A DNA stretch of 64,000 nt from a virus. The stretch spans positions 64,001-128,000 of the IMG/VR virus record IMGVR_UViG_3300025809_002164; one strand, written 5' to 3'. The notes beneath the pieces were generated by a model that did not search any database, was not told the DNA's origin, and worked only from the letters and a program-made list of their open reading frames with translations. Both the position numbers and the translations under genes were made by a program. Below are positions 9,713 through 62,940 of this stretch, piece by piece; the stretch's first letter is position 1; every line of letters begins with the position of its first letter.

Positions 9713-9741
9713 AATATAGCATAGAACTAGAATAACATCAA
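9713..9741 (-). promoter_or_regulatory. sigma70-type promoter for nrdA
   Basis: minus strand TTGATG-N17-TATATT with extended -10 TG. Confidence 0.55.
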
Positions 9742-9768
9742 GGATAAAAGTCAATAGTTATTAACAAT

Positions 9769-16816: not shown

Positions 16817-16817
16817 C

Positions 16818-17831: not shown

Positions 17832-17853
17832 AATGTATTTTTTTCTATTATTT

Positions 17854-19289: not shown

Positions 19290-19292
19290 TAT

Positions 19293-20147
19293 TTATTGTA
19301 TTTTGTGTCCTTGGGTTTTCAACAAAAATCTATTCCATTTATTTTCTAACATATGCTCTTGATGTTTTACGACTTGATCCTCGTTCTCCCATTTTGTTTG
19401 ATTGATTGTTACTGATGGGCGAATGGAGGGTATGAAATATATTGGAGCTAACCCTCTCAACTTGTCACAGAAATGCCAATGCTCTAACTGACCTTCGGAA
19501 AACCATTCAGCCTGATTAAAGTATTCACTCTTAATAAAAACAAAACCTCCAAATGATCTGTACACATCGATTGGTTTATTCTGATTAAATAACTCTCTAT
19601 CAAGCTTGCGGTAGAATGGGTTGGAGCTCCAAGTCATGCATTGATTTAAGTCGTGATCAACTAGGCTCCAGCTATCATAGTACGAGGTTAAATCTCTTGA
19701 TCCCATTTTACAAGGAACATTTTGTCTAATGTTTGGTGTAAGCATTGAGAAATTTAAATTCAAAAAATTGAAATAATCATTAATTATATTTGGACTAAAC
19801 TCTACATCGCTATCGAGCACGATTGTAAAATCAGAATCAACAGGTTTGCCTAGTGCGGCCATGCTATTTCTAATTTTAGCCATCTTTACAACCCTAGCTG
19901 ACTCCATTGTTGAGCCGTAAGATTTTTCGTTTAAGGTTTCAGACTTTAGCTCGCCGTTCTTATTCTCAATCCACTCGGATAAAATTCTAGCAGTATTATC
20001 TTTCGAGTCATTTTCGTAAAAAAAATATTCAAATTCTGCATTTGTAATATCCTCCATCAAGTCTAGTGATGATAAAGTTTTATCTATGTAATCCTCTGAA
20101 TCTCTAAATAAACTAAAAACGGAAATTCGGTATTTTTTTATTGACAT
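19293..20147 (-). CDS. GT-A glycosyltransferase (ANP1/GT62-like)
   Basis: LFRDSE, YENDSKDNT, MA.IRN, LDSDV, YYDSW, SFGG, EH. Confidence 0.7.
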   Translation of the reverse strand: MSIKKYRISVFSLFRDSEDYIDKTLSSLDLMEDITNAEFEYFFYENDSKDNTARILSEWIENKNGELKSETLNEKSYGSTMESARVVKMAKIRNSMAALGKPVDSDFTIVLDSDVEFSPNIINDYFNFLNLNFSMLTPNIRQNVPCKMGSRDLTSYYDSWSLVDHDLNQCMTWSSNPFYRKLDRELFNQNKPIDVYRSFGGFVFIKSEYFNQAEWFSEGQLEHWHFCDKLRGLAPIYFIPSIRPSVTINQTKWENEDQVVKHQEHMLENKWNRFLLKTQGHKIQ

Positions 20148-34088: not shown

Positions 34089-34105
34089 TTTATTTTAATG
34101 TTAAA

Positions 34106-36289: not shown

Positions 36290-36293
36290 ATTA

Positions 36294-38489: not shown

Positions 38490-40423
38490 TATTTTTTCCA
38501 GCTAAGTTGAAAGGTTAATGATTTTAATTCAAAAGCCTGATCGATGTCAGTTGGATCTTCTGCTAATGTCTTAACTATTAAAGTGTCATCTATATGCAGG
38601 GCATTCCCAGAATCAGTCAAAGGGAATGCCGGCCTAATATCAAAAGGCTCAACAAAGGTATTAGTTGGAGCTGAAGGTTGGTTAATTAAATCCACCATCG
38701 AGTTCGTACCAGCAGCAGTTAATCCATAATTCTCGAACCTATCAAGATCAAATTCATCAACTCCATCTTGATGTCTAAATTTAAACCCTGATCCATTAAA
38801 TCCAAATTCATAATTTTTTGCACTATTGAAATCAGCGATCACATTAAAAAATTCAGGGGTTGCAGTATTAATTGGAAAGTTTCCAGATTTTATATTCCAA
38901 TATTTTAATGGATTACCCATGTTAATCGGACCGCTATTCTCGACTATTGATCTATAGTGATTATGAATTTCTTCATCCACGTATTGGCCCGTCATGAATC
39001 CATAATACCCAGTAAGATTATTAAGGGAAGATTTATCTCCCGATTTATACCATTGATATACAAAAACTCCAGTAGAAAAATCTTGTGGCGGAAGTGTGCT
39101 AGAGATGAATGTTGAATATTCTTGAGCAGTGCCTGTTACTATACCGCTAAAAGACATTGGTGAATATGTCCCATTCTTAAACAAGCCATCAGCAAATTCG
39201 CTAGCTTGATAACATCCAGTATAAGTATCCCCTATGTTTGTACCCGGAAATTGCATTTCCGCAAAAGCATTTCCACCTAAGTGTCTATAAAATACATTAA
39301 AATCTGAATCTATAATGCTACTGTCAAAACAACCGGTTGGTCTATTATATCTTATTCCATGTTTTTTACCAATGTCTTCAGAATAATCAAAATCGGTATC
39401 AAGTCCATCCGTGCCATAATAAAAATTATCCATTGGAGTTGTATAGCTGGTGGTAAATTGATTAATTAAATCCTTGAAGTGTTTTGACCCAGTAACTGAA
39501 TACTCCTTACTAAGGTCGCTTCCAGCTTCGCCCATTAGTATTGGCATATTAACTACATCTATTGATCTAGGAGACAAGGAAACTTTATAAGTTGCAGGAA
39601 TATTTACATCATATCCATCTAGAAAATAATCAGTAAAATTAAATCCAGTTCCACTAGGCATGCATTCTACAATCTGCCCTGGAGTCACAGGAAGCCCCGT
39701 ACATGTAGCATAAATCCAAGAAGAGGTTTTGCCGTCATACTCGTTCCCTAAATTTAAAAAATTTGCAGTTTCATAAATATCCCCCCTTATTCTAAATGTT
39801 ATATCCTGAGTGCCGCAGTCAAAGTCGCAATTATTATAAAATTTTATTGTGTTTATTTTATTTGCTATTTTAACTTCGTCGTATAAATTAGTATAACTAA
39901 AATCAGGCTCGGTTACAAATCCCCCTGTAGCTGCAAAACTTTTAAGCTCCTGCCTTTCGTATAAGTCTGACTCTACTACATATTTAAAATAAGCTATTTC
40001 AGCACCTCGGTCCTCAAACGATGCATGTATGCCTGACTGCATGTCAATTTTTCTATCAAAGCAGGAAATTTGTGTTGGCTTAAAATTAATGCTTGGGTCA
40101 TTCTGATTCAGAAATCCAGACTCTATGGCGATTTCCTGCCATCCAGTTGAGTATGTCTGTATAGTGATTTTAGACTCGTGAAAAGAAGGGGTGCCATCAA
40201 CATATTTAAAGCCGCCTACAATAAAATCAATATCTTTACCACATACACAACTATTACAATCCAAGCAATCGTCAAAAGATCCATATATAGTCCTAGTAGC
40301 AATTACTCCGTCTGGAATAATAACACTTTCTGCTATTTTCTTATAACAATATCCACTAACCTGAACGAAATCCTTACCTGCTGCATCAGATATAGGGACA
40401 TATAATGAATTATTTATAGCCAT
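38489..40423 (-). CDS. putative virion protein, [ST]G-rich
   Basis: 644-aa ORF; Cys cluster DDCLDCNSCVC; GTGTA motif upstream. Confidence 0.7.
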   Translation of the reverse strand: MAINNSLYVPISDAAGKDFVQVSGYCYKKIAESVIIPDGVIATRTIYGSFDDCLDCNSCVCGKDIDFIVGGFKYVDGTPSFHESKITIQTYSTGWQEIAIESGFLNQNDPSINFKPTQISCFDRKIDMQSGIHASFEDRGAEIAYFKYVVESDLYERQELKSFAATGGFVTEPDFSYTNLYDEVKIANKINTIKFYNNCDFDCGTQDITFRIRGDIYETANFLNLGNEYDGKTSSWIYATCTGLPVTPGQIVECMPSGTGFNFTDYFLDGYDVNIPATYKVSLSPRSIDVVNMPILMGEAGSDLSKEYSVTGSKHFKDLINQFTTSYTTPMDNFYYGTDGLDTDFDYSEDIGKKHGIRYNRPTGCFDSSIIDSDFNVFYRHLGGNAFAEMQFPGTNIGDTYTGCYQASEFADGLFKNGTYSPMSFSGIVTGTAQEYSTFISSTLPPQDFSTGVFVYQWYKSGDKSSLNNLTGYYGFMTGQYVDEEIHNHYRSIVENSGPINMGNPLKYWNIKSGNFPINTATPEFFNVIADFNSAKNYEFGFNGSGFKFRHQDGVDEFDLDRFENYGLTAAGTNSMVDLINQPSAPTNTFVEPFDIRPAFPLTDSGNALHIDDTLIVKTLAEDPTDIDQAFELKSLTFQLSWKK

Positions 40424-40432
40424 ATTTATATA

Positions 40433-40437
40433 TACAC
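40433..40437 (-). promoter_or_regulatory. GTGTA late-promoter-like motif
   Basis: AAAGTGTATATATAAATATG. Confidence 0.6.
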
Positions 40438-40457
40438 TTTTTATATTTAGTTTTCAT

Positions 40458-43400
40458 TTAAAAAATTCCAGTTTGCCCGTAAGTAAAAATGCCGCCAGTG
40501 TAAGATAGTCCGGTAGAGAAATGGTTCAACTCCCAACTAGGCTGCGGGAGTTGCTGCATTCTTTGATAGCCTTTCGCAGAATTCAAAACTCCAGTTAGAT
40601 CTATTGGTATGCATATCTCATAAATTGATACAGATTCTGGGCATTTTTCATAAATAGATACTTGAGCTCCAGGAGTTCTTGATGGAGTAATCGTACTAGT
40701 CGGAGTAATCGTACTGGTCGGAGTAATCGTACTAGTCGGAGTAATCGTACTGGTCGGAGTAATCGTACTGGTCGGAGTAATCGTACTAGTCGGAGTAATC
40801 GTACTAGTCGGAGTAATCGTACTGGTCGGAGTAATCGTACTAGTCGGAGTAATCGTACTAGTCGGAGTAATCGTACTGGTCGGAGTAATCGTACTGGTCG
40901 GAGTAATCGTACTGGTCGGAGTAATCGTACTAGTCGGAGTAATCGTACTGGTCGGAGTAATCGTACTGGTCGGAGTAATCGTGCTAGTTGGAGTACGGCT
41001 AGCTCCTGGAGTCATAGTATTCGTAGGAGTAATCGTACTAGTAGGAGTCAATGTCACACTGGGAGTAACAGTAACTGTTGGAGTTCTGCTTGAAGGAGGA
41101 CAATACGGAGGTTGATCATTATCAACGATTAAAACATTGTATGGATTTTTATATAAAATCCTAGATGAAACACAATTTATTTGACCTATATTATATAATG
41201 TAATATTAAAAAATTCAGACTCTTCATGAATAAGATCTTCTTTTGTGTTTATTGCAATATACTGAACATTTTCTCCGCCTGCAAAATTCAGAACCCCTGT
41301 GGTTCCAAAAAAGTCTATACCCTGATCTGCAGAAAATAGGCTAGACGATGTTTTATATCCTACGGAAAAAGGCCCCGAGTAATCTTTGTCAGAGTAAGTT
41401 AATTCCCTATAAACCCTGACTCCAGTAGCTTGACCCTCAACGACATAAGTTGATGGATATTGAAATCTAATAGAGAGTTCTTTTTGAATACAAGTCGGAG
41501 TCGGAGTAATCGTATTAGTCGGAGTAATCGTGTTAGTCGGAGTAATCGTATTGCTCGGAGTAATCGTGCTTGTTGGGGTAATCGTACTGGTCGGAGTAAT
41601 CGTATTGCTCGGAGTAATCGTGCTTGTTGGGGTAATCGTACTGGTCGGAGTAATCGTACTAGTCGGAGTAATCGTACTAGTCGGAGTAATTGTACTAGTC
41701 GGAGTAATCGTACTGGTCGGAGTAATCGTACTAGTCGGAGTAATCGTACTAGTCGGAGTAATCGTACTAGTCGGAGTAATCGTACTAGTCGGAGTAATCG
41801 TACTAGTCGGAGTAATCGTACTAGTCGGAGTAATCGTACTAGTTGGAGTAATCGTACTAGTCGGAGTAATCGTACTAGTCGGAGTAATCGTACTAGTTGG
41901 AGTAATCGTGCTTGTTGGAGTAATCGTACTAGTCGGAGTAATCGTACTAGTCGGAGTAATCGTGCTTGTTGGAGTAATCGTACTAGTCGGAGTAATCGTA
42001 CTAGTCGGAGTAATCGTACTGGTCGGAGTAATCGTACTGGTCGGAGTAATCGTACTAGTTGGAGTAATCGTACTAGTCGGAGTAATCGTGCTAGTCAAGG
42101 TCGGAGTAATCGTACTAGTCGGAGTAATCGTGCTAGTCGGAGTAATCGTGCTAGTCAAGGTCGGAGTAATCGTACTAGTCGGAGTAATCGTGCTAGTCGG
42201 AGTCGCTGTCTGACTGCTTGTTGGAGTCGGAGTTGGGGTTCTTACTGCGATATTAATAACTCCACACTTAGATTTCCTATTAGTATTCAAGTTATCTATA
42301 AAAACAAAAGCATTGTAATTACCTAAGCTACTATAAGTATGACTTACTGTCGTATAATATCCGACTTCATTATCCCATGATAATTTTTGATTGCTCAGAA
42401 TAGTACCATCTCCAAAGTTAACACTATACCTCAAATCATTACTTACATTAAATTGATCTTCAGCCATCAAACCTAAAGAAAAAGTAGAAGCTCCATACTC
42501 AACCCTAGAACCAAAAGGAATACAGCAACTTCCCGATAGTAAAGATGTCGATGGCGTTATAGTTGGAGTAATCGTACTGGTCGGAGTAATCGTACTAGTT
42601 GGAGTAATTGTACTGGTCGCAGTTGGAGTAATCGTACTGGTTGGAGTAATCGTACTAGTCGTAGTCGGAGTACTGGTCGCAGTCGGAGTAATCGTACTGG
42701 TCGGAGTAATCGTACTAGTCGGAGTAATCGTACTGGTCGGAGTATTTGTCGGAGTAATCGTACTGGTCGGAGTATTTGTCGGAGTAATCGTACTAGTCGG
42801 AGTATTTGTTGGAGTAATCGTACTAGTAATCGAAATAGTCGGAGTATTCGTCGGAGTAATCGTACTAGTCGGAGTATTCGTCGGAGTAATCGTACTGGTC
42901 GGAGTATTTGTCGGAGTAATCGTACTGGTCGGAGTATTTGTCGGAGTAATCGTGCTAGTCGGAGTATTTGTAGGAGTAATCGTACTAGTAATCGAAATAG
43001 TCGGAGTATTCGTCGGAGTAATCGAAATAGTCGGAGTATTCGTCGGAGTAATCGTACTAGTAATCGAAATAGTCGGAGTAATCGTGCTAGTCGGAGTATT
43101 TGTAGGAGTAATCGTAGGGGTGGCTGTACTACTCGGACTCGGAGGCGGAACTTCGCCCTGCACGATATTCATTGGAGCGGGAGAACCCGCCATCGAAATC
43201 GGACTAGAAGCATAAGTTAAAGTAAGGCTCGGAGTAAATACTGAAGATTTCTGAATTGTCCCGTTAGTAATCTGCTCAGACCTAGAAAATCCTCCATCTC
43301 CTACTAGCCTGACTTGTATCAACTTGTCTCCTGGGTTTAATGCATCGTCATGAAGAGAAATCTCAAAAATTTTTCTTCTTCCAAGATTATTTAATGCCGC

Positions 43401-44000
43401 AACATTCGTAGTTGGAGGATTCATGTGAGTTCCACGAAACGTAGTCGCTACTGCGGATCCTTTGTATGTATTAAAATGATTCTCGTTTGTAAAAATTGGA
43501 TCCTGACCATCCAGCTTTTCATTGTAACCCATGTAATAATAGATTCCAACTGGAGACATCTCCACAATATTTGAAATGGCAAACAATTTAGTGTATATCT
43601 TTGTTACCAAACCAGCCCGAGTTTCACCCGCTGCAATATTAATATTTGCTATATTAAAATCGAAGGTGTGGGATGTTGGGGGGTTAGTAACACTTCCAGA
43701 AAACAACCCATTGAAGCCGCGAGCTGTGCTGCCATTCTGGAGCTTATAGTAACCCAAACTTGTCGCAGTCCTTCTCTCTGAAGGCCAGGATCGAACACCT
43801 CCAACTATTTTTTTTGATAATTGCTGAAGGGCCGGTAAAAACCCAACAATACTGAGCTCTCCAGAAAAAACTCCCCCTATTGCCAAGCTAGCGGCAGCAG
43901 GCAGCCTGAATAAATATTTCTTATCATAAGAACTGGAGCCGTTGTAGATATGTTTATTCCATCTATCTGTATGAACTACCGACATACTAACTAGGCTCAA
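40458..44000 (-). CDS. mucin-like virion protein: PTS - PKD - PTS - Calx-beta - PTS
   Basis: PKD motif VNFGDGT...[10 protein letters not shown]; Calx-beta motif [14 protein letters not shown]...[13 protein letters not shown]; three long TITPTS tracts. Confidence 0.85.
40670..41090. repeat. 18-bp TITPTS tandem repeat
   Basis: near-perfect ggagtaatcgtact[ag]gtc units. Confidence 0.95.
41495..42240. repeat. 18-bp TITPTS tandem repeat (longest continuous array)
   Basis: roughly 40 units. Confidence 0.95.
42545..43145. repeat. 18-bp and 30-bp PTS repeats (TITPTS and [10 protein letters not shown])
   Basis: higher-order 30-bp unit ggagtatttgtcggagtaatcgtactggtc. Confidence 0.9.
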
Positions 44001-46206
44001 CTATAAATACCGAGTAAGGATTAACTCCTAGGATCTGAACGTTAGAACTTACACTAACTGGGTTAGATAAGTAAATATTAAAAAACTCATCGCTCTCCCT
44101 AGGGTCATTATCTCCAGGAATCGGCAAGCCAGTAACTGTTATTTCTTTGAAAAGTTCACCCTTATTGAAAGATAGTGTGCCTGCCCCAGAAGCATAGTCA
44201 TATTCATACCCAGCAATCGCAAAAACACCGGAGCCGGAAGCACTATTTCCCGCATCCCTAGTGGAGTAATCAACAGAAAATGCTTCTAAAGATTGATCGC
44301 TCCTGAACGAATCTCTTACAACTCTTAAAGTCGCAACTGTTCCTTCTACTAAATAAGTGGAAGAATATTGAAACCTTACATACTGATTATTTATCCGGCT
44401 CAAAGTCGGAGTAATCGTAGTAGTCGGAGTAATCGTAGTAGTCGGAGTAATCGTACTAGTCGGAGTAATCGTGCTAGTTGGAGTAATCGTACTAGTTGGA
44501 GTAATTGTGCTGGTCGCAGTTGGAGTGATCGTACTAGTCGGAGTAATCGTACTAGTCGGAGTAATCGTACTAGTTGGAGTAATCGTACTAGTCGGAGTAA
44601 TCGTACTGGTCGGAGTAATCGTACTGGTTGGAGTGCGGCTAGCTCCTGGAGTCATAGTATTCGTAGGAGTAATCGTACTAGTTGGAGTGATCGTACTAGT
44701 CGGAGTAATCGTACTGGTTGGAGTAATCGTACTGGTCGGAGTAATCGTACTAGTCGGAGTAATCGTACTGGTCGGAGTAATCGTACTGGTCGGAGTAATC
44801 GTACTGGTTGGAGTAATTGTGCTAGTAGTAGTAACAGTCGGAGTAACCGTGCTGCTAATCGTAATGCTCGGAGTAATAGTCGGAGTGATTGTACTGGTTG
44901 GAGTAATAGTTGGGGTTAAGCTACTCGTAGGAGTAGGGCTTAAAGCTATTACCGGAGGACAGAAAAGAGCTTCGTCAAAATCTGAAGATGACGGATTACC
45001 TGGGCACGGCTTTGGGTCGTTAGATCCTGGAGCAGAGGCTGAGTTGAGGCAACCCCCACTCACCAGAAAACCATTAGTGGTTGTTAACGTAAAATCAAAG
45101 CCAACATCAACACTAGCAGCTCCGCCAATCTGCATGTTCGTATTTTTGCTTTTCAATACAGCATTATCAATAACATAAGTCATTAACGTTCTTCTCGAGG
45201 TATCGTCTCCCTGACAAAAGGAAGAGGATGGCGGACAATTATCCTTACAATCTATTGTTATCTTGTAAGGCTTATCGTAACCTAATATTTTATTCAAATT
45301 ACCCGTCTCTAAATTTCTTTTAATTATATTCAGATTTAAAGATCCCCTAGCGGGCAAACTTAATTTCCTATCATACGGATACATAGATCCAAACCCATAC
45401 AGATTTCTACGATTTAAGTCAACACCAATATCAAAGCCTACAGCATTAGCATTATCCTTAGATACTACAGATCCTCCGATATTTAATTCTTCAATTTTAA
45501 TATCTATATAATTAGGAAGCAAGGCTGGAGCGGAATACTCATCAGCGAAGTCCTGAGGTCCAAATTGATATTTATGACGATCCTTGTACTCTCCGTCGTA
45601 TAAATGAATTGCAGGTATATAATTATTGGAGTTATATTCATCCAGCTTAATATTTGAAGCTTGATAATCCATTGAGACCACAGCTGGCGAGCCAACTTGC
45701 ACCGATAAATTATAACTTGTAGCGAATGCATTGCCTACACCCATGACATAATGCCCAATAAAGTCAGACTCTTTCAGTAAATAATTAGCTTGCTTACCTA
45801 CATCACTCCTAAGGACCAGGAAAAAGTTTTTATCCCCAAAGTGTCTAGATATAAAGCTATTTTCCGCAATACCTCCGTTAGGGACAACATTAAAATTTAA
45901 AAGGTATTCATTAAGCCCACAAGTAGGTAGGTAGCTGAAACTAAAATTAACAGGAACCGGCTCTATGTTTACATCAATATTACTTCCAGGGCTAGGAACT
46001 GCATTGATTACATTAATTCTCCGAGTAAGCAAGTCTTCATGACCTATCTGCTTAATCTCTTCTCTATTTATATCAAAACCATAAGAAACGGACTGAACTT
46101 TTGTTATTTGTCTAAGAAATGATTGGTCGACATCAAAATGCGGCCTGAATGCTGGAGCTGGACCAACAAATAAAGCTGCATAATCAGACCTAAAAAAATT
46201 CCTCAT
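43987..46206 (-). CDS. tail-tube paralogue decorated with a PTS tract and a Calx-beta domain
   Basis: N-domain aligns by eye with 46290..47912 ([21 protein letters not shown] vs RVQSANYSFTINRQDVNQFGH); C-terminal Calx-beta GTLSFNKGE...[12 protein letters not shown]. Confidence 0.75.
44400..44940. repeat. 18-bp TITPTS tandem repeat
   Basis: same unit as in the neighbouring genes. Confidence 0.95.
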
Positions 46207-46219
46207 ACCTTAATAAACA

Positions 46220-46250
46220 ATTACACCACAACCGGAGATTGTGGTGTAAT
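46220..46250 (-). terminator. probable intrinsic terminator after the tail tube gene
   Basis: 12-bp perfect stem attacaccacaa/ttgtggtgtaat with a 7-nt loop, followed on the minus strand by TGTTTATT. Confidence 0.6.
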
Positions 46251-46289
46251 ATAATAAAATATATATACTTTATTTACATTCTTTTAAAA

Positions 46290-47912
46290 TTAAAAGTGTT
46301 TTGTGTGTTTAGCCACTTCGGAATTCCAACCTTCAGACTCTTTTCCGGAGTAGTATCCAGATGTTCCAAGGTGTCCATATCTGAAATATTTCAGCCCGTC
46401 CCCTGTATTCTCAATAGTTGGGAAAGATTTATTCTTGCCATCAGCCCCTGTCTGGTTTTCATAGCCAGAAAAGAATACTCCAACCGCTGATTCTTCAGGG
46501 CCTCCTATTTGAGTTGAAAATGTAAGGTCTACGGTTTTATTGTCTCCTATTGATGAACTAAAGCTTTCTGAATCTAGTACGGCTTTTTTGAAATCAATCA
46601 CAATAGCATCAGGTTTTGCGTTAGGATCACATACAACACATGAAGGATTTTGAATTCTAACCTTAAGGTCGTAAGTTCCTCCGCAAATAAGATCAACTAA
46701 ATTTCCATCTTTTAAATCTGCTACTAATGCATTAACACTCAAAGAGCAAGTTACAGGAAAATCTACTTCTTTAGCATATGCATATGTACTACCCAATCTC
46801 TGTAATGCTGATCTACCGAGAGGAGTAGATAACGAAAAGCTTTGAATGTGAGCACTACCAAAATCGGCAGGATTATTATACCCAACAGAATTTCCAGATA
46901 ATTGCCTAGAAATTAATGCAGAATCTTGAAGATCTATAGTTATATCTCCAGGCTTTAAGACGCTTTGACCTTGACCACTTTCAGTGGGGGGTAAAGTGAA
47001 GCATCTATCACAAATTAATGTGCCATCTGTTGGATCAATTGCTGGTATATTTTTGTAATCTGTACCCACGTCAGATTTTAAATTCATTCCTTCTACGGTA
47101 ACTGAAGCTGTTGGAAAGGATCCAACACTTCCTTCTATAGAATAATCAGTAACATAACCGTTTCCAAGACTAATAGATGTTTTCTCTGCCTCGGTTACCA
47201 TTTGGTCACCCTTGAGAGCATCTCTGCCTTCTGGCACAGTTAATATAAAAAAGTTGTTTCCAAATTCATTTTGAGATCGAGTCATCATTCCTGACAAGCT
47301 CTGAAATGAGCCATCAGTTACCATCCCCATTAATCTTTCATTTTCTCCATCCGTCAAGTAGTAAGAAAAATCCAGACTTACAGTTGGAGCCTCAAGGACC
47401 ACAGAGTCGATTCTTGCTAAATGTCCAAACTGATTGACATCTTGCCTATTTATAGTAAAGCTATAATTAGCGCTTTGAACTCTTTTAAGTTGCTCAACAG
47501 TTGTTCCCCATGAACCTTTAACATTGACGTCTCCATAGTGCTTCATGTATTTCAAGCCATTACCCGTAACACCACTTAGCATACCAAGGTCAGCGAGTAC
47601 TGGATGCCCCACCGCTTTGTAACCAGTATTCCCTGTAAGATTAAAGCCTGTAAAAGTTCCAGTACAGTCGTAAGTTTTATATTTAAAGTCAGTCCAAAGA
47701 CCTCCTCCAGTTGTTCCGGATCCCACACAAGCATTAAAACCAAACGTGGAGTCATTCACACCACTTCCGGTTATCATACATTCATTTATCGTTGTTGCCC
47801 CGGTTACCGACTCGGGTGGCATGTAGTAAAGATGATGACCTGTCGTGTCTGGTGATATGAATAAAGCTTCACTTTGATAAATTACTCGATTTCTTGCTGG
47901 TAGTTTGCTCAT
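46290..47912 (-). CDS. putative major tail tube protein
   Basis: beta-rich, internally duplicated tube-like pattern (QSANYSFTINRQ..G / QSFSLSTPLGRS..G); lies downstream of the neck/terminator-like genes and has its own GTGTA motif. Confidence 0.65.
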   Translation of the reverse strand: MSKLPARNRVIYQSEALFISPDTTGHHLYYMPPESVTGATTINECMITGSGVNDSTFGFNACVGSGTTGGGLWTDFKYKTYDCTGTFTGFNLTGNTGYKAVGHPVLADLGMLSGVTGNGLKYMKHYGDVNVKGSWGTTVEQLKRVQSANYSFTINRQDVNQFGHLARIDSVVLEAPTVSLDFSYYLTDGENERLMGMVTDGSFQSLSGMMTRSQNEFGNNFFILTVPEGRDALKGDQMVTEAEKTSISLGNGYVTDYSIEGSVGSFPTASVTVEGMNLKSDVGTDYKNIPAIDPTDGTLICDRCFTLPPTESGQGQSVLKPGDITIDLQDSALISRQLSGNSVGYNNPADFGSAHIQSFSLSTPLGRSALQRLGSTYAYAKEVDFPVTCSLSVNALVADLKDGNLVDLICGGTYDLKVRIQNPSCVVCDPNAKPDAIVIDFKKAVLDSESFSSSIGDNKTVDLTFSTQIGGPEESAVGVFFSGYENQTGADGKNKSFPTIENTGDGLKYFRYGHLGTSGYYSGKESEGWNSEVAKHTKHF

Positions 47913-47951
47913 TATATTATATATTTTAGTAAATTTGTAGTTGAAATTAAA

Positions 47952-47956
47952 TACAC
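47952..47956 (-). promoter_or_regulatory. GTGTA late-promoter-like motif upstream of the tail tube gene
   Basis: TTGTGTATTTAATTT, 39 nt before the ATG. Confidence 0.55.
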
Positions 47957-47978
47957 AAGAAAAATATTTTTGTGAAAT

Positions 47979-53985: not shown

Positions 53986-56900
53986 ATGTCACTAGGATTA
54001 AGAACTCATGTAATAGATTTAGAACAAAACATTAATCGTATTGTTCGAAAAGTAAATGCAGGTGGAGGTATAGTAGTTAAAGTGCGAGCGAGCGACTTTA
54101 CTCAACCACTGGGCAGAATGTCGGCGAAAGCTAATGAATTCACAAAGTCTCTTGAAGCTTCCAATGCTCGAGTGATAGCCTTCGGAGCATCTGCGGCAAT
54201 TATAGGGGGAGTAACCTTAGGATTCACCCAACTAGTTGTTCAGGCCACAAAAGTAGAAAAGATCTTAACCGACATTAATGTAGTTCTTAATACTTCCACA
54301 CAGAATTTAGAAAAGTTCGGAAACAGCTTGTTTAAGGTTGCTCGAAATACATCCCAAACTCTAGAGGTCGCAGCAGAAGCAGCTCTGGAGTTTTCCAGAC
54401 AAGGATTAAGTATGGAGGAGACTCTAAAGAGAACGAATGATGCCCTAATCTTGACTAGGCTCACTAGTTTAAAAGCTGCCGATTCAGTAAAAGGTCTAAC
54501 TGCTGCGGTTAACGGTTTCGCTGATGCAGGCATGACTACAGCCATGGTTATCAATAAATTATCCGCAGTAGATATTAAATTTGCCGTAAGTACAGACGAC
54601 TTAATTAACGCTCTATCTAGAGCTGGAGCTGTAGCTCAAGATGCGGGGGTTAGTTTTGATCAATTAATGGGAGCAGTAACTTCAGCTCAGCAGATTACAG
54701 CTCGAGGAGGAGCCGTAATAGGTAATAGTTTTAAGACTATCTTTACAAGAGTACAAAGAGGATCAACATTACAATCCTTAGAGGATTTAGGTATTGCGGT
54801 CAGAGATATAAGAGGAAACACACTTCCTGCTATGACGGTCCTTCAGAATTTATCATCAACTTACGAAAAGTTAGGAGCAACAACTAAAGCTGCGGTAGCC
54901 GAGCAAGTGGGTGGAGTTTTTCAAATCAACATACTTAAAGCGGCAATTAAAGACTTAAATGCCGAAACTTCAATATATAGTCAGGCGACCAAAGCATCAT
55001 CGTCAGCGACAAATGAAGCTTATACAAAAAATGCACAACTACAAAAAACTCTATCATCAATAGCCAATCAAACATTAACTACTGTTAGGGAATTAACAGC
55101 CAACCTAGGAAGCTTGACTATAGCTCCAGCCTTACAAGATTTCCTAAGCTCAGCTAACGAAGTTTTGGGGTCATTCAATAAGCTCTTTGGGGACACAGAG
55201 GGCGAATCTATTGGGGGTGACTTCGCTAAAGGTTTTGCAAGAGGTCTGGGCTCAGTACTCATGGGCCCCGGAATGATGGTTGCAGTTTTAGTGTTTGCAA
55301 AATTATTTAGTCAAGCTTTCAAATTTGCCAAAAGCTCAGTTAAAGATTTATTGCAGATTCAAAGCATTAAAGAAAAAGAAAAAGCAATACAAGAGTCTAT
55401 CGTTGATGCTATGATCAAGAATGTAGCCTTAAGTAAAGAGCTAGTAAAAATAGACGGAGACCAAGTTAAGCAAGAGCAAATAGTATTAGCTTTACTAAAA
55501 GAACAGACCGCACACATAGAACAGCAAAGAAGGATTGCTTCAGATATATCTCCGGCACTTAGAAGAGCTGGAGTTCAACCTAACTTGATAGTCTCAAAAG
55601 GTTCAAAACATGGATCTGACGGCCTTATTCCAAATTACTCAAACACAACACCCCTTGAGAGAGAAAGAGAAAGAAGCGGAGCACAGAAGGGTGGGTACAC
55701 AGCTGGAGCCATAGCTAAAATGCATGTGCCCAAATTAGGTGAAGTTGTCTACAACAAAAGAGAATCAGTTAGGAAATTCCCAGGAATGCAGCAACCCGCA
55801 ATTATTCCACCAATCAGCAGTAAGGCTGGTAAAAAATACCAAGACAATTTTTCCGAGAGGCATGGCTTTGATCCATACGGCAGTTCTAATAACTCAACCT
55901 ATAATGGCGGCTTAATTCCTAATTTCGCATCCAATACAACTGAGAAGTCTGCAATTCGAGCAATCCTAGATACACTAAAGAAAAGAAAGGTAAAAGTCTT
56001 ACCCAACGACCCGAAGCTCTCTTTCGCTGCAAATAGATACATGGAGGCGACCAAAGACAGGGAGTATCCTGGAGGTTCTGTTAATTTTGGCAAACATAAA
56101 ATAAGCATGAATGAAATCACCCTAGCCTTAAAGAAGCATGGTAATTATATGGGTGACGAAGATTTCTATGGAAATAAAGCTGGAGGCCTTATTCCTAACT
56201 TCGCACTTGGAGCCTCGCAACTCGCAGGTACAAATATTCTGAAATTGCCAAAAGCGAAAATGGCAACGCAAACAACTAAATCAGACTTTAGAGGAAATAG
56301 AGTTAAGGGTTGGAAAAATTTAGAAGCTCCACTTGACAGCATACAAAAAAGTGCCGCTAGTTATGCAGACGAGTTTAATGTTTTAAAAGGTCTAGGTATT
56401 AATGTGCTACAAAGAAAAATGTTCTTCACAAACAAAGAAGACGGAGGGATACGAAAATCTATAAATACTACTGATAGAAAAATGGCTAAATCCCGAGGAT
56501 TTCAGAAAAACAATAGAGACAACATAGCCGGATCTTCATACGAATCAGGACTTTACAAAAATCATTTAAAAGATAAAGGCTATAATGAAACTTGGACTGG
56601 AGGCTACACCCCTAAAGGTTTCCAGAAAGGCACAGGGGACCCTCAATCTACGGTTGATTTTTTTAAGGCTGGAAGGCTTCCAATAGAAGCTAAGTATGGG
56701 AAATTTACTCAAGCGAACTTAATAGCAAAAAGCATAAGGCTGTCTAGCGATAGATACATAGAAGACTTTTTATCAAGCAGGGGCGAGGGCGATATTGCTA
56801 ACAATATGGCTAATAAAAAATTTCAAGATGCATCAAGCACTCTTTCTAGCCTAGGTCATAAAAACGTAGATAAATCTATGGTGAAAAAATTCGGACTATC

Positions 56901-59900
56901 TTCAGGATTAGTACCTAATTTTATGTCTATTGGTTTAGGGCCTCATATGAACAGTAGCGATTGGCTAACCTCAAGTCTTAACCTAACCCGACAAAACTGG
57001 GACCAGGGCCAAAACCTAAAAGATGGTAGCTTTAGTGACTGGGTAGATTTCATAACAAAAGATCGCCAAATAGGCGTCCCGCTTCATTACAGAGACCGGC
57101 CGAGCAAAATAGACGAGATAGCTCAAAATAAATCGAACTCGAAAAGAGCTCGTCAGGCCAAAATACTCTACAATGACTACCTTAAAAATTTCACGAACAC
57201 AAACACTAAGAAAATCAAGATGTCTAAATTTGGAAATGTTCTTGAAATGGCTTTGGCTCAAAATTTCGGCAAAAAACCTACGTCAGCTTCATACCCAATG
57301 GACTTCACACATAATCCAATACATAAGCTTGACGGGAACCCTATAGTGAGTAGACAAACTTTAGGTCTCAACTCGCAGGTGGGAGATGCCGTTGTGACTT
57401 CTTCGGGACACGAAAAAAATAAGTTTTTCTCAAAAATTTTAGCTCACCAAATTAAATCAGGGTCAGCCGTCCTTGGAAAAAGAGGCAAATTTCCAGCAAG
57501 AATTAAAAACACAGGAGGATACAATGACTTAATCGGACACTCAGGCAAGACGAAACTTGATAAAACTGTTACAAACCATACAGCTACAGGAGCACAGTTA
57601 ACCAAAAAAAACGGCATCTTAGGGAAGTACTTAAATCCTAAGCAAAGTTATAAGTTAGATAAGTACAAAAAAGACTTCTGGAGTTACGACGAACTAGGCA
57701 TAAAGGCAGGTCAGGCTGTATCCAATTCGCAAGGTTTTATTCCAAATTATCTAAACACTGAAGAATTCGGCGACACCAGCACTAGCGCTGCCCAATTTAA
57801 TCAAAATAACGGACTCGACCTACAAACAGCTCTCTCAGGAGGCAAGGGTTTCAAGCTTACAAAATCTAACTTTCAAAAAGTAAGGCAATTCCTTAATAGT
57901 GCAGAATTCAGAAGTCTTCCTGCAGGAATTAAAACTCAATTAACAAACAAGCTCAGGATTCAATCAAAATTTCTAAAAATGGGAGATGTAACTAGACCTT
58001 ACTTAAAAGGCAAAACATCTTTTCCAGGTCGAATCGCAGTCTCTGGAGGTCTCATTCCGAATTTCTCCAACCCCTTGGCTGAAGCTATAGGTAGAGAAAA
58101 AGCAGCACTTTCAAGCCAGGGATCTACAGCTAAAGTCTATGTAGATCAGGATCAGAGACTTAAAGACACACTAAACCCTATGGGGCTAATGGTAGCAAAC
58201 AGAAGAGATGAGCCAATATCTGGTGCTCAAGGAGTTAATCGAGCAATTAATCAAGGGCTTAATCCGAAAACTCACGGCAGTTCAAATAATTCTACATATG
58301 ATTCAGGGCTAATTCCTAATTTCAACAGCCCAGTAGTAACGGGTACAGGCGGCAGTGTGTTCGCACCAGGTATTAAGGAATTAGATAAAGCAGCTAAGGA
58401 TACTGCTTCCAAAGTTAAAGATCACGGTAAATCTAGCAAAGAAGCATCAGGATCAGGAATGGATATGATGGGAGCAATGTTTGCTCTGACTAGTGTCTCA
58501 TATGCAGTTGAGGGAGCTTTAGGAGATGTCGACAGCTCCGCCGGAGCATTGGTTAAAACTCTCAATGCGGGAATAATGGGAGCTTCTCAGGGAGTAATGG
58601 TCTGGCAAGGCCTAAGTTCTGTAGGGGATAGCCTTATTAAGAAAAACACAAAGATGGGAAAAGCTATGGGTGTCGGAACAAAAATTCTCGGAGGTCTTGG
58701 CGCAGCTGTCGGAGTCCTAGTTCCAGTATTTCAAGCTTTAGGGGAAAATACCAGCATGCTGGATGGTCCGTTTGAAACTTTAGCTAAAAGTGTAAAAGAA
58801 ACATCGAAATCTATAGGGGCTCTAGGTAATGCCATAACTGCCCACACAGATCTAGAGTCTACTCGTAGTGAAATTTCACAATTAAATAATTCTCAAGATA
58901 AAAATACTTACGACGGAAGGATGAAACTATTAACCCTGCAGACGAAAGAAGCCAAAAATAACTCTGATTTAATTAAATCTGCTGGAGAACTTGGTAAAGC
59001 TTTAAACCTAACAGGAGCGGATCTTATGACAATGACATCTGGAACTGCTTTGGGCATGGAAAAACTACAAGAAAACATGTTAAAATACCAACAAGCACTT
59101 GCCGTAGAAACCGCGATGATGCAATTTACTAAAGGGCTAGGTAGTGGTGGGTTTGCTGGAATGTTCAAACAAGAAGGTACTGATTATGAAAGAAGGGCCG
59201 GCCAAGTGGGTGTAGCTCAGCAAATAGCTAGTCAATCAGAAAATCCCAAACAGTTAGACGAACAACTAAAAGTGTTTATGAAGGCCTTTTCTACCCTCAA
59301 AGAAGACTCCCAGCCCCTAAGAGACTCGGTCAGTACCTACCAGAATGTGTTGGCAGCAGGTAATAAAACAGGATTTGGAAGGTCCGCCGGATCACTTGCT
59401 ATGATGGCGAACAGTGCTAAGAATGAGCTTGGGATGGGAGTTGACGTGAGCAAGATTACTTCCACCTTTGAGAGTTCCGTCTCTAAGCTTCCTGTAGCCT
59501 ATCAAACTTTAGCATCCCAAATCATAAAGAACGCGCAATCAATGGAAATAGGGGATATTGAATCGCTCCTTAAAGGAGTTGAGAGTAATGCGAGGCTTTT
59601 AGTTAAAGATTCTAAAAAGTCAGCAGAACAACAAGTAATTAATTATAAATACCTAAGAGAGACTACTAGACTTAATCGAGAACTGGCCAACCGAACACAA
59701 CTATCATTAAATCAGGACAAAATAAACCTATCCTTAGGAAAAGAAAAGCAGGGAGTTCTAAAGTCAGCTCGAGCACACAATATAAAATACCTTGCAGCCC
59801 TGGGTGCGACAACTAAAGCCGCCACGCTTGAATCAGAGATGCTCGAAAAAAGCAAACAAATTGATCAAGATTTAATGAACAAAAAAACGGAAATAAATAA

Positions 59901-62900
59901 TAAATACAAAGCCGAAGGAATCAAGTATATTGACACATTATTTAACGATAAAAAAAATAGCCTTATCGATCCAGTATTAACTCAGAGCCAGGGGGGCAAG
60001 GATTCGAGTGGAAAGAGCCTTTCTGCTGAAAAAACATGGGAAAAATCTCAAAAAGAGCTACAGTCACGAATGATAGCAGCATCCTTCAATAACAAGGGCA
60101 TTGAAGAGGGCGGCACACAAGATCCAAAACTTCTAAAACTCAAGAAAGATTTAGGCCTTGCCCAGAACCAAGAACGAGTAAGCTTTCTATTTAAAGAGTA
60201 CATCCATTCCTTGAAGGATTCAGTAAAACAGCAAGAGGCCCTAAATAACTTTCAAAAAGCAAAGATAATACCAGAGCAGATAGACCTGGCAACGTTCTTC
60301 AGTCATTCCGTAAATCTTAAGAACCAAGAAATCAAGACGGAAGAAGACTCCGCTAAGGTTAAGAAAATCAACCTGGATGTAGTGAGAGCACAGCTCAATA
60401 TGGAAAAAGGAACTCTATCTCATGCCCAGAAAAGGCTTACAGATATCAAAGCTATCCCTTACCACCAATTAGACGAAGTAACAAAGGAACAAATAGACAC
60501 CAATAAAACTGTAGCTCAGGCTGACTACGAGATCCTTAGAAATAAAGAAATATATCTTTCCTTCGGAGAAGGTCTTGCATCCCTACAATCAGAGCAGCTT
60601 GAGGTTGAAAGGTTAAGAGTAAAAAAAGAATCGGATTCGCTCAATACTCAATCTAAAAGGCTAGATGCAGAAGAAAAGCTTAGAAAATCGACGGATGATT
60701 ATAAAAACATAATAAGGCTAAAGGTAGAAAATGAGCTTAAGACTTTAAGGAATTCTACTGATGATGATATTACGACTTTAAAAGAGGAGAAAAAACAGGG
60801 TGCCTTCGGAAAGCGAACTGAAGCCGGGAACAGTCAGTTGGTTAGGGACGAAGAAAGGGCGATGCTCAATCACATAGAAGCCTTAAAGCAAGGCACTTAT
60901 TCTCTCGGAGCTCTGCACAGCATGGCTGAGAGTACCAGATCTTTCGAAAAAGCCCTAATAGAAGCTAAAACAAAACTCGAGAACGGAGGCGACTTTCTAG
61001 AGGGTCAGCAAGGAGTAATTCTGGATACAGCTCACCAAAAAGGGGGCATAGAAAAACTTAAAGGAGAAAAATCAGTATTCAACGACAGAGGAGCAACAGT
61101 AAGAGTTGCAGAAACAGACCTGAAGATAGCTCAAGCGCACAAGGAGTTAAATTTAACAATGGGTGAAGGGAGTTTATTTGCGGACTCAATGAGAGTAAAA
61201 ATTGCTGAAGCAAATGTAGAAATGTCCAGGTTTGGCGAAACAATGGCCAACACGGCATTTGATGCGACCAAGGAAGGCTTTAAGGGGCTTATTCAAGACA
61301 TGGGAGACGGAACTAAATCTCTAGGTGACGTAGCCGCTAATTTCTTTGGAACTATAGTAGACAGAATGAATGAGAAGTTGATAGATAGAGCTGCAGGTCA
61401 ATTAACTGCAGGCCTAATGGAAGCCGCAGGCTTCAATCAAGGTGGCCATGTGGGATTCAATCAGGGAGGTCATGTCTCTAGGTATTCATCTGGAGGCACA
61501 ACTCGCCAAGTTCCAGCCATGTTGACCTCTGGAGAATATGTTGTACAAAAAAGAATAGTCGACAGGCTTGGAACTAACGAACTTAATAAAATTAACGACT
61601 CTGGATCCCTCGAGGAACTATATGATAAACCAAATAATGAGTCTTTTTCATTATTAAATGAAGGAGGCATAGCAAGCCCTCCAATCATAAAACTAAAAGA
61701 GGGAGGAGTTGCTAAAAATTATCTTTCAGGAATAGTAGGAACAATTAATAAATTCATGGGGGGCATAGTAAAAATGGCAGGGGGCGGAATACTATCCTCA
61801 AGCCCAGACGATAGTGCAGGTATGAAAATGGCAAAAGGGGCGGGCTACTTAGCAGGCTCAAGCCTCCATGCATATCAAAACAGAGGAGAAGGCAACCAAG
61901 GCCCTAGCGCTCCTAAAGCTCCGACCGCGCTCAACACACACTCCTCCTTGAATATTGACCCAACAGGAAACAGGATGAGTGCTAAATATAAAGCTAATGA
62001 TTCCTATCGTCAAGATTATGGGAAATATCTACTAGATAAATACCAGCATGATGTTGACACTAATAACCAAAAAGTAAAAAGTAGGGCATCTACAGCTCAA
62101 GGAATAGTAAATGGCATTGGATTCATGGGAATAGGAATGGCAGCTAGTGCAGCCGGAGATTACGCTAAAGCGGGAGGCTTTACCAAAGAGGGGCGAATGG
62201 CCATGCGTGCTGAAAAAGATGCTGCTGAATATGCAGCAAACCCTCAAGCTTACGCTCCTCCAGCAAAGGGCTCCGAAAGAATGCCCTACCATACAGGGGG
62301 TATAAACTTTAATTCTCCAGGTTCAGCAAACTCAAACCCAGCAGGAATAGGGGGAGGAGTCACAAATAATGTAAGCAATTCCACTCAAGCTGGAAACAAT
62401 TATCATACCGGTGGCATGAATTTCAATTCATCTCGCTCCACCCAGTCAAACTTAAATAAAGTTAATGACTACTCATGGACAAAAAATAACAACTTATCCT
62501 CAGGGCTCAAAAATCCATATCAACTGAATCAAGGAGGAATGATAAAGATGAGCTCCGGAGGTAAAGTTCACGGCCCAGGAGGTATTGATAAGGTTGGGCC
62601 AGTTATGCTCGATAGAGGTGAATTTGTGATAAAATCTTCCAGTGTTAATAAGATTGAAAAACAAAGTCCAGGATTCTTCAATAGGCTTAACTCAATGAAG
62701 ATGTATGAAGGAGGAATAGTTGACCCTTCAGCCAAAGCTGTGGCTAGCACCACAGAGAGTGGGAATACTCAAAACTCATCAAGCAATGTAACCATCAATA
62801 TCAACGTTTCTTCTGGAGGAGAAACTTCAGTTAGTGGCGGAGAAGCGAAGCAGCAAGCATTTGCATCCAAAATTAAAGAAGCTGTGGTTGGCATTATATC

Positions 62901-62940
62901 TCAAGAGAAAAGAGTAGGAGGCATGCTCAGTGGCAACTAA
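53986..62940 (+). CDS. phage tail tape measure protein (TP901-family core) with internal cargo modules
   Basis: 2984 aa; N-terminal EFSRQG..., DIKFAVSTDDL..AL.RAG..A..AGVSFDQL, IGNSFKTIF.R core; C-terminal PAMLTSGEYVV and VTININVS motifs. Confidence 0.92.
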   Translation: MSLGLRTHVIDLEQNINRIVRKVNAGGGIVVKVRASDFTQPLGRMSAKANEFTKSLEASNARVIAFGASAAIIGGVTLGFTQLVVQATKVEKILTDINVVLNTSTQNLEKFGNSLFKVARNTSQTLEVAAEAALEFSRQGLSMEETLKRTNDALILTRLTSLKAADSVKGLTAAVNGFADAGMTTAMVINKLSAVDIKFAVSTDDLINALSRAGAVAQDAGVSFDQLMGAVTSAQQITARGGAVIGNSFKTIFTRVQRGSTLQSLEDLGIAVRDIRGNTLPAMTVLQNLSSTYEKLGATTKAAVAEQVGGVFQINILKAAIKDLNAETSIYSQATKASSSATNEAYTKNAQLQKTLSSIANQTLTTVRELTANLGSLTIAPALQDFLSSANEVLGSFNKLFGDTEGESIGGDFAKGFARGLGSVLMGPGMMVAVLVFAKLFSQAFKFAKSSVKDLLQIQSIKEKEKAIQESIVDAMIKNVALSKELVKIDGDQVKQEQIVLALLKEQTAHIEQQRRIASDISPALRRAGVQPNLIVSKGSKHGSDGLIPNYSNTTPLERERERSGAQKGGYTAGAIAKMHVPKLGEVVYNKRESVRKFPGMQQPAIIPPISSKAGKKYQDNFSERHGFDPYGSSNNSTYNGGLIPNFASNTTEKSAIRAILDTLKKRKVKVLPNDPKLSFAANRYMEATKDREYPGGSVNFGKHKISMNEITLALKKHGNYMGDEDFYGNKAGGLIPNFALGASQLAGTNILKLPKAKMATQTTKSDFRGNRVKGWKNLEAPLDSIQKSAASYADEFNVLKGLGINVLQRKMFFTNKEDGGIRKSINTTDRKMAKSRGFQKNNRDNIAGSSYESGLYKNHLKDKGYNETWTGGYTPKGFQKGTGDPQSTVDFFKAGRLPIEAKYGKFTQANLIAKSIRLSSDRYIEDFLSSRGEGDIANNMANKKFQDASSTLSSLGHKNVDKSMVKKFGLSSGLVPNFMSIGLGPHMNSSDWLTSSLNLTRQNWDQGQNLKDGSFSDWVDFITKDRQIGVPLHYRDRPSKIDEIAQNKSNSKRARQAKILYNDYLKNFTNTNTKKIKMSKFGNVLEMALAQNFGKKPTSASYPMDFTHNPIHKLDGNPIVSRQTLGLNSQVGDAVVTSSGHEKNKFFSKILAHQIKSGSAVLGKRGKFPARIKNTGGYNDLIGHSGKTKLDKTVTNHTATGAQLTKKNGILGKYLNPKQSYKLDKYKKDFWSYDELGIKAGQAVSNSQGFIPNYLNTEEFGDTSTSAAQFNQNNGLDLQTALSGGKGFKLTKSNFQKVRQFLNSAEFRSLPAGIKTQLTNKLRIQSKFLKMGDVTRPYLKGKTSFPGRIAVSGGLIPNFSNPLAEAIGREKAALSSQGSTAKVYVDQDQRLKDTLNPMGLMVANRRDEPISGAQGVNRAINQGLNPKTHGSSNNSTYDSGLIPNFNSPVVTGTGGSVFAPGIKELDKAAKDTASKVKDHGKSSKEASGSGMDMMGAMFALTSVSYAVEGALGDVDSSAGALVKTLNAGIMGASQGVMVWQGLSSVGDSLIKKNTKMGKAMGVGTKILGGLGAAVGVLVPVFQALGENTSMLDGPFETLAKSVKETSKSIGALGNAITAHTDLESTRSEISQLNNSQDKNTYDGRMKLLTLQTKEAKNNSDLIKSAGELGKALNLTGADLMTMTSGTALGMEKLQENMLKYQQALAVETAMMQFTKGLGSGGFAGMFKQEGTDYERRAGQVGVAQQIASQSENPKQLDEQLKVFMKAFSTLKEDSQPLRDSVSTYQNVLAAGNKTGFGRSAGSLAMMANSAKNELGMGVDVSKITSTFESSVSKLPVAYQTLASQIIKNAQSMEIGDIESLLKGVESNARLLVKDSKKSAEQQVINYKYLRETTRLNRELANRTQLSLNQDKINLSLGKEKQGVLKSARAHNIKYLAALGATTKAATLESEMLEKSKQIDQDLMNKKTEINNKYKAEGIKYIDTLFNDKKNSLIDPVLTQSQGGKDSSGKSLSAEKTWEKSQKELQSRMIAASFNNKGIEEGGTQDPKLLKLKKDLGLAQNQERVSFLFKEYIHSLKDSVKQQEALNNFQKAKIIPEQIDLATFFSHSVNLKNQEIKTEEDSAKVKKINLDVVRAQLNMEKGTLSHAQKRLTDIKAIPYHQLDEVTKEQIDTNKTVAQADYEILRNKEIYLSFGEGLASLQSEQLEVERLRVKKESDSLNTQSKRLDAEEKLRKSTDDYKNIIRLKVENELKTLRNSTDDDITTLKEEKKQGAFGKRTEAGNSQLVRDEERAMLNHIEALKQGTYSLGALHSMAESTRSFEKALIEAKTKLENGGDFLEGQQGVILDTAHQKGGIEKLKGEKSVFNDRGATVRVAETDLKIAQAHKELNLTMGEGSLFADSMRVKIAEANVEMSRFGETMANTAFDATKEGFKGLIQDMGDGTKSLGDVAANFFGTIVDRMNEKLIDRAAGQLTAGLMEAAGFNQGGHVGFNQGGHVSRYSSGGTTRQVPAMLTSGEYVVQKRIVDRLGTNELNKINDSGSLEELYDKPNNESFSLLNEGGIASPPIIKLKEGGVAKNYLSGIVGTINKFMGGIVKMAGGGILSSSPDDSAGMKMAKGAGYLAGSSLHAYQNRGEGNQGPSAPKAPTALNTHSSLNIDPTGNRMSAKYKANDSYRQDYGKYLLDKYQHDVDTNNQKVKSRASTAQGIVNGIGFMGIGMAASAAGDYAKAGGFTKEGRMAMRAEKDAAEYAANPQAYAPPAKGSERMPYHTGGINFNSPGSANSNPAGIGGGVTNNVSNSTQAGNNYHTGGMNFNSSRSTQSNLNKVNDYSWTKNNNLSSGLKNPYQLNQGGMIKMSSGGKVHGPGGIDKVGPVMLDRGEFVIKSSSVNKIEKQSPGFFNRLNSMKMYEGGIVDPSAKAVASTTESGNTQNSSSNVTININVSSGGETSVSGGEAKQQAFASKIKEAVVGIISQEKRVGGMLSGN
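55621..58323 (+). repeat. seven dispersed G-[LF]-[IV]-P-N-[FY] peptide motifs in the TMP
   Basis: motifs start at 55621, 55909, 56185, 56905, 57733, 58048 and 58306 (residues 546, 642, 734, 974, 1250, 1355, 1441). Confidence 0.95.
61429..61476 (+). repeat. 24-bp tandem duplication encoding GFNQGGHV twice
   Basis: ggcttcaatcaaggtggccatgtg / ggattcaatcagggaggtcatgtc. Confidence 0.9.

Follow-up and report, generated by a model that had tools for sequence, protein, structure and literature searches.

What is carried in the middle of a phage tape measure protein (TMP) when that middle is divided by one short peptide repeated seven times? The question is raised by a TMP gene in a stretch of 64,000 nucleotides, hereafter the window, which covers positions 64,001 to 128,000 of the viral record IMGVR_UViG_3300025809_002164 (146 kb in all). 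An original prediction, made from the letters of this DNA, took the divided part of the protein for an array of interchangeable cargo modules, delimited by a G-[LF]-[IV]-P-N-[FY] motif and delivered into the cell with the phage DNA. Comparison with 217 distinct related TMPs shows that the array is modular and makes its delivery likely; on balance, we favour the view that the TMP carries a cargo array that is delivered by the virion and diversified by recombination.

A repeated peptide divides the tape measure protein

The gene and the parts of its array are the following (window coordinates and strand).

53986-62940, +: TMP, 2,984 aa, of a lambda-like siphophage (PF10145 and four PHROG TMP families)
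55621-55638, +: junction motif 1, GLIPNY
55639-55908, +: segment 1, opening frame module, family F2, conserved
55909-55926, +: junction motif 2, GLIPNF, interrupted in a near-identical phage by a 489-nt module insertion
55927-56184, +: segment 2, small patchy module, family F8, in 6 of 91 non-redundant TMPs
56185-56202, +: junction motif 3, GLIPNF
56203-56904, +: segment 3, folded alpha/beta domain, family F3, candidate nuclease, core cargo of the clade
56905-56922, +: junction motif 4, GLVPNF
56923-57732, +: segment 4, patchy module, family F9, variant triad E1087, D1106, D1134, with H1142 replacing the lysine
57733-57750, +: junction motif 5, GFIPNY
57751-58047, +: segment 5, small basic patchy module, family F4, in 18 of 91 non-redundant TMPs
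58048-58065, +: junction motif 6, GLIPNF
58066-58305, +: segment 6, closing frame module, family F1, conserved, small alpha-beta-beta-alpha fold in the model
58306-58323, +: junction motif 7, GLIPNF, directly followed by a drop in identity to the near-identical phage from 100% to 67%

The motifs start at residues 546, 642, 734, 974, 1250, 1355 and 1441, and so are spaced by 96, 92, 240, 276, 105 and 86 aa, as had been claimed; the number expected by chance from composition is 0.00036, and a broader form of the pattern has no copy in any other open reading frame of at least 100 aa in the 146-kb genome. The similarity between the surroundings of motifs 2 and 7 was likewise borne out at the DNA level, as a repeat of 50 nt (55877-55926 and 58274-58323) that is 80% identical. 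The longer context common to these two motifs also closes other modules in relatives, which fits linkers moving along with recombination.

The motif is a trait of the whole family, with 1,106 strict copies in the 217 TMPs. A motif matrix built from these copies gave 237 hits when 40 proteins were scanned and a single one after they were shuffled, and the consensus reads [SA]-x-G-[FLY]-[IV]-P-N-[FY]-[AS]. The first copy stands at residue 539-646 in nine of ten proteins of the family, the array measures from 305 to 2,219 aa with up to 18 copies, and tandem motifs 7-35 aa apart, with no domain between them, also occur. Eight TMPs (P0050, P0057, P0060-P0064 and P0067) have a second set of motifs far downstream that ends about 180-205 aa before the C-terminus, and four others (L027, L028, L068 and P0085) have zero or one motif in 2,000-3,000 aa and are possible array-less TMPs.

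Modules are exchanged at the motif

A direct view of exchange is given by a near-identical TMP, P0002 (locus L090), which matches that of the window at 98-100% identity in five of the six segments and has a further module of 163 aa. Both ends of the 489-nt insertion lie within motif 2 and share the same 11 nt; the module has HAD-phosphatase-like motifs as read by eye and no Pfam match. Downstream of the array, positions 58324-59685 of the window (TMP residues 1447-1900) are only 49-67% identical to L090 between flanks of 84-100%; this is a large exchanged block that begins at motif 7.

The same behaviour is found across the family. With the motifs masked in 47 non-redundant close relatives, 72-73% of 2,164-2,278 internal alignment ends lay within 10 aa of a motif, where random positions gave 12% and decoy masks 3%. 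The 1,080 segments of the family fall into 175 module families, and both changes of order and tandem duplication are seen; segment 2, for example, precedes segments 3 and 4 in the window and follows them in L121 and L122. Segments 2, 4 and 5 are scattered over a FastTree phylogeny of the N-terminal backbone, which we used for patchiness only, gains and losses being indistinguishable on it. Gain, loss, duplication and rearrangement of modules thus all take place at the motif. Relatives differ in how many modules they have, in which ones and in their arrangement; at least one module is folded and enzyme domains are present, so that the array is not the colinear, invariant filler that would have spoken against the prediction.

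Interchangeability holds for segments 2, 4 and 5 and not for the rest, since segments 1 and 6 are a conserved frame around the array and segment 3 is the core of the clade. The family of segment 1 occurs in 124 of the 217 TMPs and is the first module in 106 of them, that of segment 6 occurs in 175 and is the last in 154, and in most of the smallest complete arrays a lone nuclease-like module stands beside one frame module or both. We do not claim homology between the two frame modules, as the probability of 84 obtained with the motif included drops to 2.4 without it. Frame-module profiles gave no significant match to the C-termini of the T5 and lambda proteins, and a sequence profile search of the PDB with a minimal array returned nothing.

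The composition and predicted folds of the segments agree in part with what had been expected. The net charge per residue is +0.068 in the array and +0.014 in the rest of the TMP, and segments 1-5 are rich in lysine and arginine (14-17%), while segment 6, at 10%, is not. A globular fold is predicted for segment 3, with a mean predicted local distance difference test score (pLDDT) of 90.6, and for the version of segment 6 carried by a relative (pLDDT 72-85); a relative's copy of segment 1 is modelled as an alpha/beta fold with moderate confidence only (pLDDT 50-69). The model of a relative's minimal array is confident for the last frame module alone, and the fold searches made with it were filled by low-confidence helices.

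The original prediction also saw in the motif a recombination anchor. Modules are indeed exchanged there, and the anchor role looks like a by-product of a motif that is kept as a peptide. Codon use in the motif is near that of the rest of the gene, with a mild excess of ATT and CCT, so selection acts on the peptide and a purely DNA-level anchor is ruled out. Copies within one gene share 76% DNA identity, and such short identity in the motif codons would make each junction an in-frame crossover point.

The cargo includes a candidate nuclease and other enzyme-like modules

Segment 3 is predicted to fold as a single alpha/beta domain (pLDDT 90.6, as above; predicted template modelling score 0.87). 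Three groups of charged residues, E853, D891 and E901-x-K903, are conserved at 90% or more in 60 sequences. In the model a long helix bears E853, and two successive strands, after which comes another helix, bear D891 and E901-x-K903, respectively. PD-(D/E)XK nucleases show this order of elements; the model departs from them further on, where helices take the place of the strands normally found next. In structural comparison, Bse634I, Cfr10I, FAN1, CdiA-CT, PspGI, PfoI, R2 and 3ijm score Z of 2.0-2.9, tied with unrelated rows, the best nuclease row being Bse634I (Z 2.9, root mean square deviation 5.3, 108 residues aligned); we take 8 of the 25 rows with Z of at least 2 to be PD-(D/E)XK nucleases. 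A Foldseek search of the model against PDB and BFVD gave no match. Nearly every relative with more than 70% backbone identity has this segment, and its 41 relatives among 1.8 billion proteins are all TMP-sized or motif-bearing, except for one fragment of 128 aa. On the strength of the modelled fold and its conserved residues, segment 3 is a candidate PD-(D/E)XK-like nuclease.

Segment 4, present once in the genome, has a variant of this triad. Its first three acidic residues are invariant; the lysine two residues past the third of them is absent, D1134 being followed by A-V and, 7-8 residues on, by an invariant G-H, which likewise stands in for the triad lysine in families F20, F23 and F33. 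This segment is also the fastest-changing part of the array. Among 11 near-identical phages, 13 of the 16 polymorphic residues in TMP positions 1-1950 fall within it, several of them linked in one haplotype. The four variants with DNA sequence differ in this segment at 13 replacement and 4 silent sites (P = 0.03 compared with the rest of the gene) and in the other five segments and the motifs at 0 and 7; the C-terminal part of segment 4 differs from that of L090 by 10 replacement and 0 silent codon differences. This polymorphism is compatible with diversifying selection.

The cargo of relatives is broader. A scan of 110 segments against Pfam, PHROG and PADLOC found Pfam matches to GNAT, SNase, PcfJ, DUF7178 and PGDYG and no muralytic family. 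A PD-(D/E)XK-like triad, searched with a pattern drawn from the same data in which it was counted, occurs in 193 of 391 modules of at least 180 aa, where shuffled sequences give 10.5, and is present in 150 of 200 TMPs. The labels HAD-like, ART-like, kinase-like and P-loop given to other modules are motifs read by eye and counted, without significant Pfam support. Many modules appear basic and enzyme-like, most often with a PD-(D/E)XK-like triad, and this has been shown in part.

Several results weigh against reading the array as enzymatic cargo. None of the six segments of the window has an identified family, and Pfam and PHROG searches with the whole TMP returned the core domain alone, with no Pfam family called in the array. 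Segment 3 matches nothing in Pfam, PHROG or PADLOC, its best structural score (Z = 3.1) is to an unrelated protein, and PDB profile and ESM Atlas searches with segments 3 and 4 gave nothing usable. For segment 4, the 13:4 ratio is also near the neutral one and compatible with relaxed selection or decay.

Topology suggests that the array faces the cytoplasm

The TMP has membrane-spanning-like hydrophobic regions on the Kyte-Doolittle scale at residues 63-81, 420-438 and 1567-1585, with weaker stretches near residues 1491-1540, and two of the three regions enclose the array.

55243-55299, +: hydrophobic, membrane-spanning-like segment upstream of the array, residues 420-438, Kyte-Doolittle 1.91
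58684-58740, +: hydrophobic segment downstream of the array, residues 1567-1585, Kyte-Doolittle 2.0

Of 181 relatives, 173 have a hydrophobic segment at most 200 aa upstream of the array and 112 have one downstream of it (threshold 1.5), only 4 hydrophobic peaks are found inside arrays in 157,398 aa, and the array is more basic than the rest of the TMP in 192 of 193. In TP901-1, a cytoplasmic loop of the TMP is predicted between two hydrophobic segments, and the lambda protein gpH* forms a channel across the envelope (PMC12617516). As a counterweight, TP901-1 tolerates the loss of its second hydrophobic region, which leaves the topology argument insecure.

The original prediction had imagined the tail lumen as a magazine of effectors. 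As worded, with folded effectors, this is unlikely, since a folded domain of 240 aa is about 4 nm wide, the same as the assumed width of the lumen (~4 nm), which is shared by 3-6 chains; from these dimensions the cargo is probably packed unfolded. In the mechanism that we propose, the array would be packed unfolded in the tail tube, the hydrophobic segments would enter the inner membrane as the TMP leaves the tail, and the array between them would face the cytoplasm and fold there. Modules of nuclease type and modifying enzymes would then act on nucleic acid of the host or of rivals, or on defence components, before phage gene expression. Taken jointly, unfolded packing, membrane insertion and folding and action of the array in the cytoplasm seem to us rather likely.

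Is the motif cut?

The prediction had also made the motif a protease cleavage or sorting signal. We give even chances to the proposal that the peptide is a protease site that arose from a TMP maturation signal and is cut in trans to free the modules; the cutter would be a gpK-like JAB/NlpC protein or a host protease. In T5 pb2, cleavage takes place behind R1127 (PMC10038345), at the end of the sequence S-F-V-P-R. On the motif matrix this site ranks first in pb2, at 0.6 bits. Three of the four motif blocks in a modelled array from a relative are linker of low confidence, which would suit any kind of exposed recognition site. The residue after the final F or Y of the motif is most often A (707), S (211) or V (100), and the junction, an Asn followed by F or Y, has no nucleophile after it of the kind used in intein or Ser/Thr/Cys autoprocessing. 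For lambda, the cut site of the maturing TMP and the enzyme are unknown (PMC12617516). The record encodes a candidate enzyme four genes downstream of the TMP, with apparently intact H-x-H...D and Cys...His residues.

L114:4356-5105 (G000:130855-131604): gpK-like protein, candidate TMP protease in trans, weak JAB and NlpC/P60 matches

Cutting is called into question by other observations. The T5 site, at only 0.6 bits, compares with 0.3 for its runner-up and with 23-28 for true motifs on a similar matrix. The best match of lambda gpH (L120) to the junction matrix is G-M-I-P-M-F at residues 106-111 (7.8 bits), just before a predicted membrane segment, a likeness that reflects either chance or remote homology; this site is evidently uncut, because gpH* keeps its N-terminus and about 700 residues (PMC12617516). 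An HExxH peptidase motif is absent from the TMP and occurs in only 11 of the 217 relatives. Cutting between the hydrophobic segments during assembly would moreover fragment a protein that forms the DNA channel.

If the motif is not cut, the modules would work tethered at the injection site, and the array would be one loop on a membrane-inserted TMP. In such an arrangement the motif would be a docking or sorting signal that keeps the domains unfolded and threaded during assembly, with a tail chaperone, the tube wall or a frame module as its partner. The presence of one motif at each module edge, strictly kept as a peptide, would suit this role, as would the TMP without internal protease, the uncut gpH site and the inability of folded domains to share the lumen. 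However, a docking signal leaves aside that the motif resembles both the T5 cut site and the xGG units found in the C-terminal region of the lambda and T5 proteins, and motifs 7-35 aa apart without a domain are easier to understand as redundant recognition sites; we regard a permanently tethered array as rather unlikely.

The modules are unlikely to be passengers or filler

Exchange at the motif might also be expected of selfish inserts, that is, mobile DNA of the homing-endonuclease type that colonises a tolerant site, its modules being of little use in infection. The dominance of nuclease-like triads among large modules, the patchy distribution on the backbone tree and the near-neutral variation of segment 4, which has no catalytic lysine, are in line with this. 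We nevertheless hold it to be very improbable: GNAT, P-loop, SNase, kinase-like, ART-like and HAD-like cargo has no homing role, the other five segments (1, 2, 3, 5 and 6) vary at silent sites only, the relatives of segment 3 are, bar the one fragment, TMP-sized or motif-bearing, and the junction has no intein signature.

Modules that merely tune tail length or envelope crossing, as length filler or periplasmic channel parts whose enzyme-like motifs are relics, would agree with TMP length setting tail length (PMC5099701), with the variable length of the array and with the muralytic nature of known TMP enzyme cargo (PMC1796659, PMC10038345), but there is very little room for them beside a confidently modelled globular domain with conserved residues of catalytic type, GNAT and SNase cargo that needs cytoplasmic substrates, and a very basic array, the 110 segments scanned having no muralytic family among them.

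Relationship to known systems

The protein belongs to the TP901-1/lambda type of TMPs (PF10145). The core domain covers residues 119-310 (E 1.9e-20; 74.1 bits compared with the curated Pfam cut-off of 33.2), four PHROG TMP families match the whole protein, and it resembles TP901-1/lambda-type TMPs in core domain, gene context and hydrophobic segments. Known TMPs are also cleaved (T5 and lambda) and carry an enzyme motif (T5 pb2 and TM4 gp17) (PMC10038345, PMC12617516, PMC1796659). Their muralytic motif is fixed and they are cut once, C-terminally, whereas the present family has a central array of 305-2,219 aa, with exchangeable basic domains that apparently act in the cytoplasm and up to 18 copies of the peptide.

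The array may work like a polyvalent protein. As described by Iyer et al. (2017; PMC5512222), the polyvalent proteins of phages and conjugative elements join unrelated conflict domains (GNAT, ART-like, nucleases) in one virion-borne polypeptide encoded by a late gene, and delivery with the DNA and later splitting have been proposed for them. The late-gene, virion-associated context is found here as well, the carrier being the TMP itself, and the mix of unrelated domains (GNAT, SNase, by Pfam) is found across the family, the modules of the window having no assigned family. Unlike in our TMP, polyvalent processing rests on an internal HExxH metallopeptidase, which is common in the class and not universal. 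The paper mentions no tape measure proteins, and a repeated junction peptide was not encountered in it, in a reading not aimed at one.

Polymorphic toxin systems (MuF, Rhs, CdiA) have a conserved carrier and exchangeable nuclease-type tips that are swapped at a short conserved junction. The present array differs from them in that its cargo is internal and multiple, with no C-terminal tip, adjacent immunity gene or orphan cassette; as the cargo is internal and the gene directly after the TMP encodes a 267-aa tail protein and not an immunity protein, a polymorphic toxin system was ruled out. We found no account of the motif or the array in the literature, in a search that was not made on the motif string itself.

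Gene context

The TMP gene lies in a tail region of lambda type, followed by M/L/K/I/J-like tail-tip genes; no sheath gene (PF04984) was found, as is the case for the non-contractile tails of the TP901-1/lambda type. The two genes upstream have no significant Pfam or PHROG match, and their position suggests that they probably encode tail assembly chaperones.

52104-53955, +: gene pair preceding the TMP gene, putative tail assembly chaperones
61432-62640, +: C-terminal region of the TMP with [FYM]-x-x-G-G-x-V units, resembling the lambda gpH and T5 pb2 C-termini

At window position 62518 (TMP residue 2844), P0002 (locus L090) has an insertion of 141 aa edged by a repeated Y-Q-L-N-Q-G-G unit, which indicates that the C-terminal xGG units also serve as boundaries of insertions and deletions. 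Four near-identical TMPs (P0119, P0122, P0123 and P0126) are called in pieces (1,650, 1,958 and 1,001 aa), probably through assembly or sequencing frameshifts. Among the 40 matches listed for isolated phages of GenBank, all were to the TMP core alone, at 22-29%, and no cultured model was found.

Elsewhere in the genome, L116:9481-10620 (G000:29481-30620) encodes a C5 cytosine DNA methylase (PF00145, E 1.7e-39), which could protect the phage's own DNA against a delivered nuclease. The genes at L117:550-3123, L117:5744-6835 and L116:13603-14688 specify, respectively, a DNA polymerase III alpha subunit, a stand-alone PDDEXK_1 nuclease and a UvdE endonuclease. Window positions 503-20147 and 31338-49580 hold many probable glycan-modifying genes and large structural-region genes, two of them with Calx-beta matches.

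Implications for the biology of the phages

In its boldest form, which we put forward tentatively and with more doubt than conviction, a widespread clade of large aquatic siphophages would use the TMP as a programmable polyprotein injector. A single peptide recognised by a protease, having arisen by amplification of a TMP maturation signal, would both release and recombine an open-ended set of at least 175 effector families, among them an undescribed PD-(D/E)XK-like branch, and single modules such as segment 4 would be engaged in an arms race with host defence.

If the favoured reading is true, the tail ruler could be a general route by which ready-made enzymes enter the cytoplasm at injection, beyond the wall-degrading ones that enter the periplasm. 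The motif splits unannotated giant TMPs at clean domain boundaries, which turns them into a screenable library of candidate anti-defence and take-over proteins. Two questions would also become testable, namely which protease matures TMPs and what its target is, and which part of the ejected TMP faces the cytoplasm.

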